Origin: a virus
Taxonomy: Duplodnaviria; Caudoviricetes
IMG/VR virus record: IMGVR_UViG_3300035682_000031
Location: 1,223-65,222 of that record
Strand: one strand, 5' to 3'
Length of the DNA: 64,000 nucleotides
The notes beneath the pieces are model-generated. The model was not told the DNA's origin. It ran no database searches and saw only the letters and a list, made by a program, of their open reading frames with translations. This document shows positions 61,213-63,146 of this stretch, piece by piece (position 1 is the stretch's first letter; each line of letters opens with the position of its first letter). The position numbers and the translations under genes are program-made.

Positions 61213-63146
61213 TAACAATCACCATACCTTTCCGCGAATTTTGCATCGCATTTTAGAGGTAAACCCTGAATCCAATCAGGACACGTTGTCATACAACCGA
61301 CCATAAGGTCTTTGGTTTCTTGACCAAGTTCTGTCGGTACAACCACGGCAAATTCATCGTGTGTATTCAACTTTGGCTCGACACCGAGATCCATCATCCA
61401 AATGCCTTGGTGTTTCATAATATCGAACGCAATCGCTTGGGTGCAGTTATGAACAATCACCGGACCACTGTCGCCTTTGACAACAAATCTAGTTTTTGGT
61501 CCGCAGTTAAGGATGTCGTAGACCCGAAAACGTCCTGTCCGCGTTCCAACCGATAACGAATTGTGCTGTTCGGAACACCCGACAGTTGACTTAACAACAC
61601 CACGTCCAAACCAATGCTGTTTCGTCTGTTCAAACAATTTCGCTTTCTCGTTACCCAATGGCAGTTCTTTGGTGAATACCCCGCGTTGTTGTCGACACGA
61701 TCCAAGTCCGTACCTGGCCGATACGATGGCCCCATGTCCGCCCAAAACGCTTCGAACGAACCCTGCCATGCTTCGCATACTGTAATTCCCCGCCCACCGT
61801 AATTTCCCCACGACTGATGGGGCGGCAGTTGGCAACGATCGCGCATACTCCGCCAAACCCAATAGACCGGATGTTTTGACATGCCGTGTGTCTTTGGTAG
61901 CGACTGTAACATTTTCGTCATGCACCCACAATTGGGCGTCCCGCCACGTTTTGTTTCCTTCGCAACGTCGGCGCCCAACTTCACACACTCGTGGCCACAG
62001 TCGCATAGGTATGTCCATGCCCACTTCAAACCTGTCGTGTGATGCCTCGATACACATGTCAACATTCCGAATTTCTGGCCGGTAAGGTCTCGGCTGTTGT
62101 GATGCACTTTGCCACTTTTGATACTCATTCAATACCTCGTGATCTGGAGTCATAAAAACACCGTCTACTGTAACACAATCCTGTTCTGATTTGGTAAGTA
62201 TTCCACCATGAGTTACAAAACTATCCCCGTCGTGAACCTTATCAGATAAACGTACGTCTTGTATTTTCTTCCACCCGTGGTCCGTCAAAACCAGAGTATC
62301 CTCGGCTATGCAGTTTTCAATGAACTTACCACCGTAGATGTACGTTTTGACTTTAGAACGACCGCGAATCGAATCAAACACAATCGAGCGTTTACCCTCT
62401 TCATCCAACTGCACACGCAGCCCTGGGTAAGTCATCCAAGTGCCACTCGGCAAACGAATTGATGGCACAACTTCCCCAAACAAAACTCGGCTGCCGTCGT
62501 AGTAAATGGCGTCTTCCTTCGGGCCGAGGAAATAACCTTGACCACCAATAGCCATGTGCTCCAAAACTTCTTGTGCTCGTTTCCATGACCGCACGATATG
62601 TGCGTTCTTGCGACGGTACGTCACAATCGCGAGTTCGGACTGCTCATCCATCAGATTCACGCCGTAAGTAGTTTTGGCAAATGTACCGAACTTCTTCTTA
62701 CCCAAGCCGTAGCCTGCACCGAGTACTGTTGCCTTACCTGCCGGACGCTGGATACTGCAATATGGCTCAACGCCTTCCTTGTCCAAACGTCGAATCTCAA
62801 CAGGGTCACCGCCGAAAATCTCAGCGGCCATAATTGAATACGGATCGGCGTCGTTCGCAAACTCTTCGAGCAAGTCCGTCTGATTCGCCAACCACGCTAG
62901 CACGCGAGCCTCAATCTGACCCGAGTCACCCGCTACAGTAACCATACCGTCAGGCGCTTTGATGGCGCGTCTGAGTGCGTTTGTCTGTCCTTCCTTACGC
63001 CCGCTCGGGAGGTTTTGGAGATTTATACCGTCCGAGTTATGGATCAGTTTTCCGTTCGCCACGAACCGATGTCTTGGTCCCGCGTTTCGAATGTCGTACA
63101 CGGGGACGACTGCTATTGGTTTTAGCTCGTTGTTTAATCTCGTCAT
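61212..63146 (-). CDS. family A DNA polymerase, C-terminal half (split-intein C-fragment, polymerase domain and one internal intein)
   Basis: NLQNLP, motif A DSGQIEAR, motif B R..GK...LG..YG, motif C THDE; own AAGGA SD. Confidence 0.92.
   Translation of the reverse strand: [644 protein letters not shown]
61446..62312 (-). mobile_element. contiguous intein (289 aa) in DNA polymerase
   Basis: [12 protein letters not shown] (block A), MTPDH (block B), VYDI (block F), IVHN|C (block G); removal restores ENCTQA. Confidence 0.92.
61457..62128 (-). CDS. HNH-type homing endonuclease nested out of frame in the intein
   Basis: DLTGQKFG.LT, CDCG, THG.S, W.SM..RC, YGGRGI.VC and LDRVDNN.GY...NC.W; GAGGT SD 5 nt before the ATG. 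Confidence 0.9.
   Translation of the reverse strand: MSIKSGKVHHNSRDLTGQKFGMLTCVSRHHTTGLKWAWTYLCDCGHECVKLGADVAKETKRGGTPNCGCMTKMLQSLPKTHGMSKHPVYWVWRSMRDRCQLPPHQSWGNYGGRGITVCEAWQGSFEAFWADMGPSYRPGTDLDRVDNNAGYSPKNCHWVTRKRNCLNRRNSIGLDVVLLSQLSGVPNSTIRYRLERGQDVFGSTTSLTADQKLDLLSKATVVR
63036..63146 (-). mobile_element. split intein C-fragment (37 aa)
   Basis: M...[23 protein letters not shown]; in-frame TAA two codons upstream of its ATG. Confidence 0.88.

Follow-up and report, generated by a model that had tools for sequence, protein, structure and literature searches.

A putative HNH-like endonuclease gene nested one base out of frame within a stop-free intein of a phage family-A DNA polymerase

Homing endonuclease (HEN) genes lying out of frame within inteins have been described only recently, in two preprints of 2025-2026, both concerned with nuclease families other than the one considered here. 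Actinophage inteins were reported to carry antisense LAGLIDADG, antisense VSR-like and frame-3 EndoVII-like endonucleases; the accessible text of that preprint gives HNH only as an in-frame type and proposes that such arrangements originate when a free-standing HEN invades an intein (Gosselin, Arsenault and Gogarten, 10.1101/2025.01.02.630785). A cyanobacterial dnaX intein was likewise found to hold a +2 out-of-frame LAGLIDADG open reading frame (ORF) (Phillips et al., 10.64898/2026.09.14.751524). Here we describe a related arrangement in a 64,000-nucleotide (nt) stretch of a tailed virus (Duplodnaviria; Caudoviricetes; IMG/VR record IMGVR_UViG_3300035682_000031, positions 1,223 to 65,222), referred to throughout as the window. 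In it, an intein of a family-A DNA polymerase (intein-2) is read through without a stop, and the same DNA encodes an HNH-like ORF in the +1 frame. The architecture had been pointed out in a sequence-only reading of the window, whose implied claim of rarity was overstated given that the two preprints already contain out-of-frame endonucleases in inteins. Gorbalenya (1998) is reportedly cited by both for an earlier proposal.

The window locus shares with the actinophage frame-3 case a contiguous intein and a HEN on the same strand in another frame, and differs from it in having an HNH-like rather than an EndoVII-like nuclease, in the frame used, in the host genes and in the phage group (10.1101/2025.01.02.630785). 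The dnaX intein is similar in its overlapping-frame HEN, in the constraint on the HEN frame, in its relaxed intein frame and in its sporadic distribution, but it is a LAGLIDADG element of a cellular gene, whereas the window element is HNH-like and sits in a phage family-A polymerase (10.64898/2026.09.14.751524). The ShiLan domain, a hidden out-of-frame HNH in a phage methylase, is also nested in a stop-free host ORF, with a GTG start near the beginning of the insertion and a stop near its end (Arsenault et al., PMC11855218). As far as the accessible text of that report goes, ShiLan lies in frame 3, no splicing domain and no ribosome-binding site were detected, and the insert is thought to be retained; the HNH-like ORF of the window, in contrast, is flanked by Hint blocks and accompanied by Shine-Dalgarno (SD)-like tracts (PMC11855218). 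In fractured genes, finally, a free-standing endonuclease gene lies between the halves of a split intein (Dassa et al. 2009, PMC2677866). The nucleases described in the portion of that paper available to us were GIY-YIG and Vsr-like, with an HNH gene fracturing an intein only predicted (PMC2677866). Intein-2 resembles these cases in the place the endonuclease occupies and in the overlap of its 3' end with C-intein coding sequence, yet it is unbroken and belongs to a single ORF rather than to separate N and C ORFs; a second intein of the same polymerase gene, intein-1, does fit the fractured pattern (PMC2677866).

The closest relatives by sequence were found in phage records by tblastn, which returned matches to the HNH-like protein in 1112 of them. 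The best homologs (43-51% identity) lie beneath contiguous DNA polymerase coding sequences (CDSs) of Shewanella phage SFCi1, APSE-1 to APSE-7 and four Caulobacter phages (GB2A/RW/RLK/KcrB). APSE-1 (P45/P46, NC_000935.1), SFCi1 and the Caulobacter phages have members of this element family, each a homologous intein inserted at the identical or an adjacent site with the HNH homolog in its +1 frame, within polymerases whose exteins are only distantly related to that of the window. The HNH frame stops at the start of block F in APSE-1, GB2A and SFCi1, whereas that of the window continues to four codons before the intein end. A literature search, which excluded the 1999 APSE-1 paper and supplements, found nothing on a +1-frame HNH in a family-A polymerase intein and nothing interpreting APSE P46. 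Judged from sequence, the element is distinct from the reported out-of-frame cases in its nuclease family, host gene, phage range, overlap with the splicing blocks, start signals made of intein codons and wide distribution. Its parts are given below in coordinates of the window, all on the minus strand, with a slash marking each splice junction.

61212..63146, minus strand: segment of the family-A DNA polymerase ORF, 644 amino acids (aa), with a Pfam DNA_pol_A match (E=3.5e-16)
61446..62312, minus strand: intein-2, a contiguous class-1 intein of 289 aa (ORF aa 279-567), inserted at ...YGGKFIEN/C...VHN/CTQA
62088..62312, minus strand: splicing region at the N terminus of intein-2, comprising aa 1-75 with blocks A and B, predicted with high confidence and conserved among relatives
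61545..62087, minus strand: polymerase-frame linker (intein aa 76-256), stop-free, poorly conserved and predicted to be disordered
61446..61544, minus strand: splicing region at the C terminus of intein-2, comprising aa 257-289 with blocks F/G and a final VHN
61457..62128, minus strand: HNH-like endonuclease ORF of 223 aa nested in the +1 frame, with its TGA at 61457-61459, matching phrog_374 (E=2.6e-51)
62134..62138, minus strand: SD-like GAGGT, separated by 5 nt from the ATG downstream (62126-62128), within the His-Glu-Val codons that follow block B
62105..62107, minus strand: alternative start GTG at HNH codon 8, the aligned position of the start codon in most relatives
61628..61711, minus strand: predicted beta-beta-alpha nuclease motif (HNH aa 140-167, LDRVDN...NC.W...N), from secondary structure and alignment to I-HmuI (1u3e)

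The polymerase ORF segment contains the C part of intein-1, a middle extein, intein-2 and the C extein, and its translation passes through intein-2 without a stop. Intein-2 begins with Cys1 (CIAEDT), has the block B sequence TPDH (T55-P-D-H58) and ends in the block F/G sequence VIVHN, followed by the +1 Cys (codon 61443-61445, minus strand). C1, T55, H58, V287, H288 and N289 are invariant among the 11 aligned sequences (alignment A1). An AlphaFold2 (AF2) model of the intein frame, built on the same 11-sequence alignment, gave pLDDT scores (predicted local distance difference test) of 85-95 for aa 1-75 and about 90 for aa 257-289, and below 50 for aa 76-256. When the model was compared to the PDB with Foldseek, the top matches were all inteins or Hint domains (DnaB, gp41-1, RecA, DnaE) at a probability of 1.0, with E-values of only about 8e-3 and template modelling (TM) scores of about 0.4. 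Intein-2 has the features of a class-1 intein: the nucleophile, TxxH, the C-terminal His-Asn followed by Cys, the Hint fold and an in-frame insertion into a polymerase motif. The same boundaries and blocks A, B, F and G were thus recovered as in the sequence-only reading, which had also described the middle of the intein as free of motifs. That description stood in so far as the middle has no Pfam or NCBIfam match (the sole PHROG match of the intein frame is weak and covers aa 21-72) and is predicted to be disordered; it did not hold as an outline of the nested ORF, which reaches beyond the middle. The first approximately 14 HNH codons overlap the structured N-intein residues 62-75, and the last approximately 26 overlap blocks F/G.

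The nested ORF is complete, as had been proposed, and its TGA lies 11 nt before the intein end, close to the 10 nt first estimated. In addition to phrog_374 it matches phrog_3377 (E=2.8e-40), both PHROG families being annotated as HNH endonucleases. Its AF2 model has several domains, a mean pLDDT of 74.3 and a predicted TM score of 0.42, with strands at 140-144 and 156-160 and a helix at 161-166 forming the predicted nuclease motif. The best PDB profile match of alignment A2 (12 HNH members) was I-HmuI, over this motif (E=0.0027), where D143-R144 of the window protein aligns with D74-H75 and the Asp, Asn and Trp positions coincide. The likeness ends there: the match is weak, Arg replaces His75, and the N-terminal Cys-rich and central domains differ from those of I-HmuI. 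N147, N155 and N167 are invariant in A2, and of the 30 loci that have the motif, 23 carry Asp and 7 Glu at position 143. A single-sequence phmmer search of the PDB gave 0 matches, and a search of a protein atlas gave only unnamed viral clusters and NUMOD leads. The nested protein is a putative nuclease, judged by its family annotation and by the mobility pattern described below.

The nested layout recurs widely. In the SFCi1, GB2A and APSE-1 records the HNH match lies in the +1 frame of a polymerase CDS that has the same intein blocks. The polymerase frame is also open in 14 of 14 closer relatives from IMG/VR (35-53% identity), in nine of nine bacterial genome contigs (Clostridia, Alicyclobacillus, Parapusillimonas, Oscillospiraceae, Pseudoxanthomonas, Novosphingobium and others) and in all four loci found through a polymerase search. 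Together with the three phage records and the window, these make 31 nested loci, of which 31 have an open polymerase frame and an HNH frame open over 197-238 codons. Distant IMG/VR relatives (about 36% identity; L018-L025) are free-standing genes, and none of the eight has that frame open. A further scan of metagenomes yielded 80 loci, 76 of them fully open, three open as far as seen before running off the contig, and one with a single stop. As a DNA query against phages, the whole region gave only three short matches. On this comparison of loci, the nested layout is real and common in phages. Standard annotation had been predicted to miss it, and in the three records opened the nested gene was either absent, with only the polymerase CDS annotated (SFCi1, GB2A), or present as a truncated 'HNH endonuclease', P46, inside P45 (APSE-1).

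A nested case at a different site was seen in Gardnerella phage vB_Gva_AB1 (MW387018.1; L116). Its polymerase CDS (886-3789) holds an intein at ...GKIAELA/CIAEGE...KLVHN/CGYGG, with a 269-codon HNH-like open +1 frame that is only about 25% identical to HNH2, the second HNH-like gene of the window (see below).

Which of the two frames carries protein constraint could be read from the alignments. Fifteen non-redundant sequences aligned by codon gave diversities of 0.395, 0.360 and 0.582 at positions 1, 2 and 3 of the HNH codons, respectively, and the least variable position, 2, is the third position of the polymerase frame. Mean pairwise identity over the middle was 0.537 in the HNH frame as compared to 0.289 in the polymerase frame. 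Amino-acid constraint therefore lies in the HNH frame, which is under strong purifying selection; the opposite result, a middle conserved in the intein frame, had been named in advance as the one that would speak against the nested gene.

The polymerase frame nevertheless stays open, and more strictly than the HNH protein alone would require. When the synonymous codons of the HNH ORF were permuted, keeping protein and codon usage, the polymerase frame was stop-free in one of 5000 shuffles, with a mean of 8.8 stops expected, in agreement with the earlier estimate of roughly 1e-4 for an open frame by chance. A stop in the polymerase frame (frame 0) is possible only where an HNH codon with a final T is followed by one that begins with AA, AG or GA. 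Codons ending in T are never used in this context in the window (0/44, as compared to 45/136 elsewhere), nor across 25 non-redundant loci (0/852, as compared to 748/3510; Fisher p=8e-79). Third-position diversity of 0.58 means that stops had ample opportunity to arise. As controls, the dispensable frame beside split intein-1 in the same genome has 18 stops, and each of the eight more distant free-standing relatives has 12-21 stops in that frame. These patterns indicate that selection holds the polymerase frame open, a conclusion that, like the architecture itself, we hold more firmly than the full mechanism proposed below. They also accord with the suggestion that the intein frame is kept open as a linker, which is predicted to be disordered. 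The absence of T-ending codons before AA, AG or GA gives a simple marker by which to search for other overlapping genes that lie hidden.

The window contains 59 open frames of 150 codons or more, and in none of the others is the open run in an alternative frame as long as in the polymerase/HNH pair (223/222 codons as compared to 155 for the next). The runner-up is at 12911-13729 (minus strand), a 273-codon open frame with a 155-codon alternative-frame run. At 4640-5604, stops are unusually scarce for the window: both strands have several overlapping frames that stay open for 140-145 codons.

The start signals of the nested gene are also made of intein codons. The GAGGT and ATG of the window are both formed by the codons CAC GAG GTA TTG AAT GAG just after the block B His, as had been proposed, and a TGA in the +1 frame sits directly before the ATG. 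At 23 of the 31 loci an ATG, GTG or TTG occupies one aligned codon, five codons before a K/R-D-x-T-G motif; in the remaining loci an ATG lies a few codons off, and all 31 have a start codon ahead of the conserved N-terminal HNH motif. An SD-like 4-mer precedes the aligned start codon in 22 of the 31, and the purine tract of the relatives (GAAAAGGG, GAGGGG, AAAGGAG) is formed by the intein codons for (T)EKGW. The 81-nt RNA around the HNH start folds no more stably than shuffled sequences (z=+1.23; the fold is equalled or bettered in 181 of 200 shuffles), which lends no support to a regulatory hairpin there. From these signals we infer that the HNH-like protein is initiated independently, in line with the sequence-only reading, which took the nuclease to be a free protein.

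Evidence for mobility comes from comparing occupied and empty sites. With the L006 polymerase as reference and its 80 closest relatives as the sample (67-100% identity in the flanking exteins), the intein is present in six, at two neighbouring sites (L006, L007, one at GGK/C and three at EN/C), and the other 74 read YGGK(V/C)VEN.CQAVAR unbroken, counting L059, whose contig ends after the motif. The four newly found intein-bearing loci all have a nested HNH, which in L099 shares 57.5% identity with that of the window. When the window is compared to other loci, the N part of the intein is 31-64% identical and the HNH 35-58%, with extein identity ranging from undetectable to 40%. These similarities, combined with sporadic presence among the relatives of L006, fit the transfer of intein plus HNH as a unit. 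Across L004-L017, L099-L110 and the window, three neighbouring insertion points are used in one polymerase motif, GGK(x)/CEN, GGK/CVEN and GGKxxEN/C(T/V)Q, and even a single polymerase lineage uses more than one of them.

Taken together, the observations are best explained by a composite mobile element in which a class-1 intein carries an HNH-like gene of the free-standing type one base out of frame; we give this mechanism as a whole a probability of roughly 0.8. The element would have inserted into the conserved polymerase motif YGGK..EN/C.QA, with the HNH gene between blocks B and F, where inteins normally carry their endonuclease. Ribosomes translating the polymerase would read the HNH gene in frame 0 as a disordered linker of about 180 residues, which protein splicing would remove together with the intein. 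The HNH protein would be made separately, from its own SD and start codon within the same mRNA, and would presumably cut intein-free polymerase alleles, into which the whole unit would then be copied. Since a frame-0 stop would truncate an essential polymerase, selection would purge stop-creating synonymous choices from the HNH gene. The steps of translation, splicing, cleavage and homing are proposed here from the sequence record and are to be read as a model of how the element may work.

Several observations weigh against this mechanism. The 31 nested loci share ancestry, and some metagenome contigs duplicate IMG/VR entries, so that counts such as 31 of 31 are not counts of independent events. 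No close relative of the window's own polymerase extein was found in viral or metagenome contigs. The aligned start codon of the window is a GTG with a weak upstream purine tract, the ATG/GAGGT pair was seen only in the window and SFCi1 (L002) among the loci compared, and the other loci with an upstream ATG, L004 and L013, have GAAGT instead. One metagenome contig, L187, has a single frame-0 TGA (about 846-851) with an ATG directly after it; the frame is open again through blocks F/G and the C extein, and no other relative has such a stop, which may reflect an error in sequencing, a recent nonsense mutation or a split intein in the making. In L033, a scaffold of a metagenome-assembled genome, the HNH is degenerate, lacking the N-terminal Cys-rich part and the nuclease motif, with both frames open. 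For the nested protein itself, no HNH family match was found in Pfam or NCBIfam, and a Foldseek search of the PDB with its model returned nothing at E<=0.001. His75 of I-HmuI is the general base, and the residue at this position is Arg in 29 of 31 loci, His in one and absent in one, so catalysis may differ or be absent. Because of the Arg in place of His and the lack of a Pfam or NCBIfam HNH model, 'HNH-like' is the safe name for the protein.

The Arg and the missing Pfam and NCBIfam matches favour an alternative in which the nested protein is no longer a nuclease and serves as a DNA-binding or accessory protein, the element being vertically inherited or using a nuclease in trans. Weak helix-turn-helix matches in the C-terminal part of relatives point the same way. 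Nevertheless, the same D-R motif is found in HNH2 and throughout large PHROG families whose annotation is HNH endonuclease, the HNH frame is under strong purifying selection, and the sporadic distribution and cross-extein similarity argue for ongoing mobility; we consider the non-nuclease alternative unlikely. It would be more surprising still if the frame-0 linker had a function of its own, such as tuning splicing, so that both frames were under protein constraint. Frame 0 does have a few invariant columns and one predicted helix (residues 168-189), but the invariant columns lie under the most conserved HNH motif (SFEAFWADMG), residues 76-256 have pLDDT values below 50, and codon position 2 of the HNH frame is the least variable.

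No more credible is the view that the HNH ORF is a decaying relic whose open +1 frame was inherited rather than selected, with only the polymerase frame mattering. The deletions in the L033 HNH, beside a polymerase frame that stays open, would suit such decay. Against it, the +1 frame stays open for 197-238 codons in every nested locus despite approximately 45-55% protein divergence, third positions are the most variable, identity is 54% in the HNH frame as compared to 29% in the other, and start codons are conserved. A +1 ribosomal frameshift producing an N-extein/N-intein/HNH fusion instead of internal initiation is hardly tenable either: the frames do overlap just after block B, with an SD-like tract upstream as at some frameshift sites, but a start codon is found at, or close to, one shared position in each of the 31 loci, the window has a +1-frame TGA directly before the ATG, and there is no in-frame stop, obvious slippery site or stabilized RNA fold (z as above). 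Since all 31 loci show the same frame relation, a sequencing or assembly frameshift is ruled out. An in-frame intein-HNH protein produced through two frameshifts is excluded by the stop of the HNH frame at or inside blocks F/G, and a group I intron by the continuous ORF bounded by Hint blocks.

The composite element favoured here is not the only HEN-associated intein in this polymerase gene. Upstream of intein-2 lie the parts of the split intein-1 and a second HNH-like gene, HNH2:

63713..64000, minus strand: N part of split intein-1 with its own stop (63713-63715), continuing across the contig ends
63037..63834, minus strand: HNH2, a free-standing HNH-like gene of 265 aa with ATG at 63834 and SD GGAAGGAG, matching phrog_3377 (E=8.5e-26)
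63036..63146, minus strand: C part of split intein-1 (MTRLNN...) with its own ATG at 63146 and an AAGGA Shine-Dalgarno, in a third frame

HNH2 starts just after block B, shares 122 nt with the N part of intein-1 and 110 nt with its C part, and is 35% identical to the nested HNH. Its SD (GGAAGGAG) and ATG are formed by Gly-Glu-Gly-Ala-Asp-Asp codons. The ends of the 65,222-bp contig, in which the window end 64000 corresponds to position 65222, share a 4-nt GTAG overlap, and joining them restores the frame from the polymerase N extein into intein-1 (...HRLGG/CVVAETMI...). The in-frame join means that the genome is circular or circularly permuted and that the assembly broke inside the polymerase gene. 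By its layout, intein-1 with HNH2 is a fractured-gene arrangement with an HNH-type gene, and nested (intein-2) and fractured (intein-1, HNH2) states stand side by side in one polymerase gene. The HEN of intein-2 is, on sequence similarity, related to free-standing HEN genes. Relatives of HNH2 in phage records are at best only 25-30% identical. One of them, H34 (Enterococcus phage TJE2), proved to be an ordinary in-frame, misnamed HNH gene.

The side-by-side nested and fractured states, the TGA-ATG of L187 and the nested intein of the Gardnerella phage each fit a broader interpretation, which we offer tentatively and at somewhat less than even odds. Out-of-frame nesting may be a general and stable third outcome of HEN invasion beside in-frame fusion and fracture, with start signals recruited from conserved intein codons, and it may directly precede split inteins. 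The elements bear on how inteins gain endonucleases and on how split inteins arise, and they form a natural series of more than 100 loci that includes culturable members (the phages of Caulobacter CB15 and Shewanella phage SFCi1). As nuclease and splicing domain would be separate products of the same DNA, the cost of the overlap, the role in homing and the step from nested to fractured can each be tested. Intein surveys that look only in frame would class such elements as endonuclease-free.

Two further ORFs lie downstream of the polymerase on the minus strand. That at 59769-60020 encodes 83 aa with an HNH motif that looks canonical by eye (VDHIKAV...NIRLLPVKKN). The ORF at 60366-61202, just downstream of the polymerase, encodes 278 aa with a C-terminal Cys cluster (CPWCPVTFC), which we take to resemble that of Cas4/RecB-type exonucleases.

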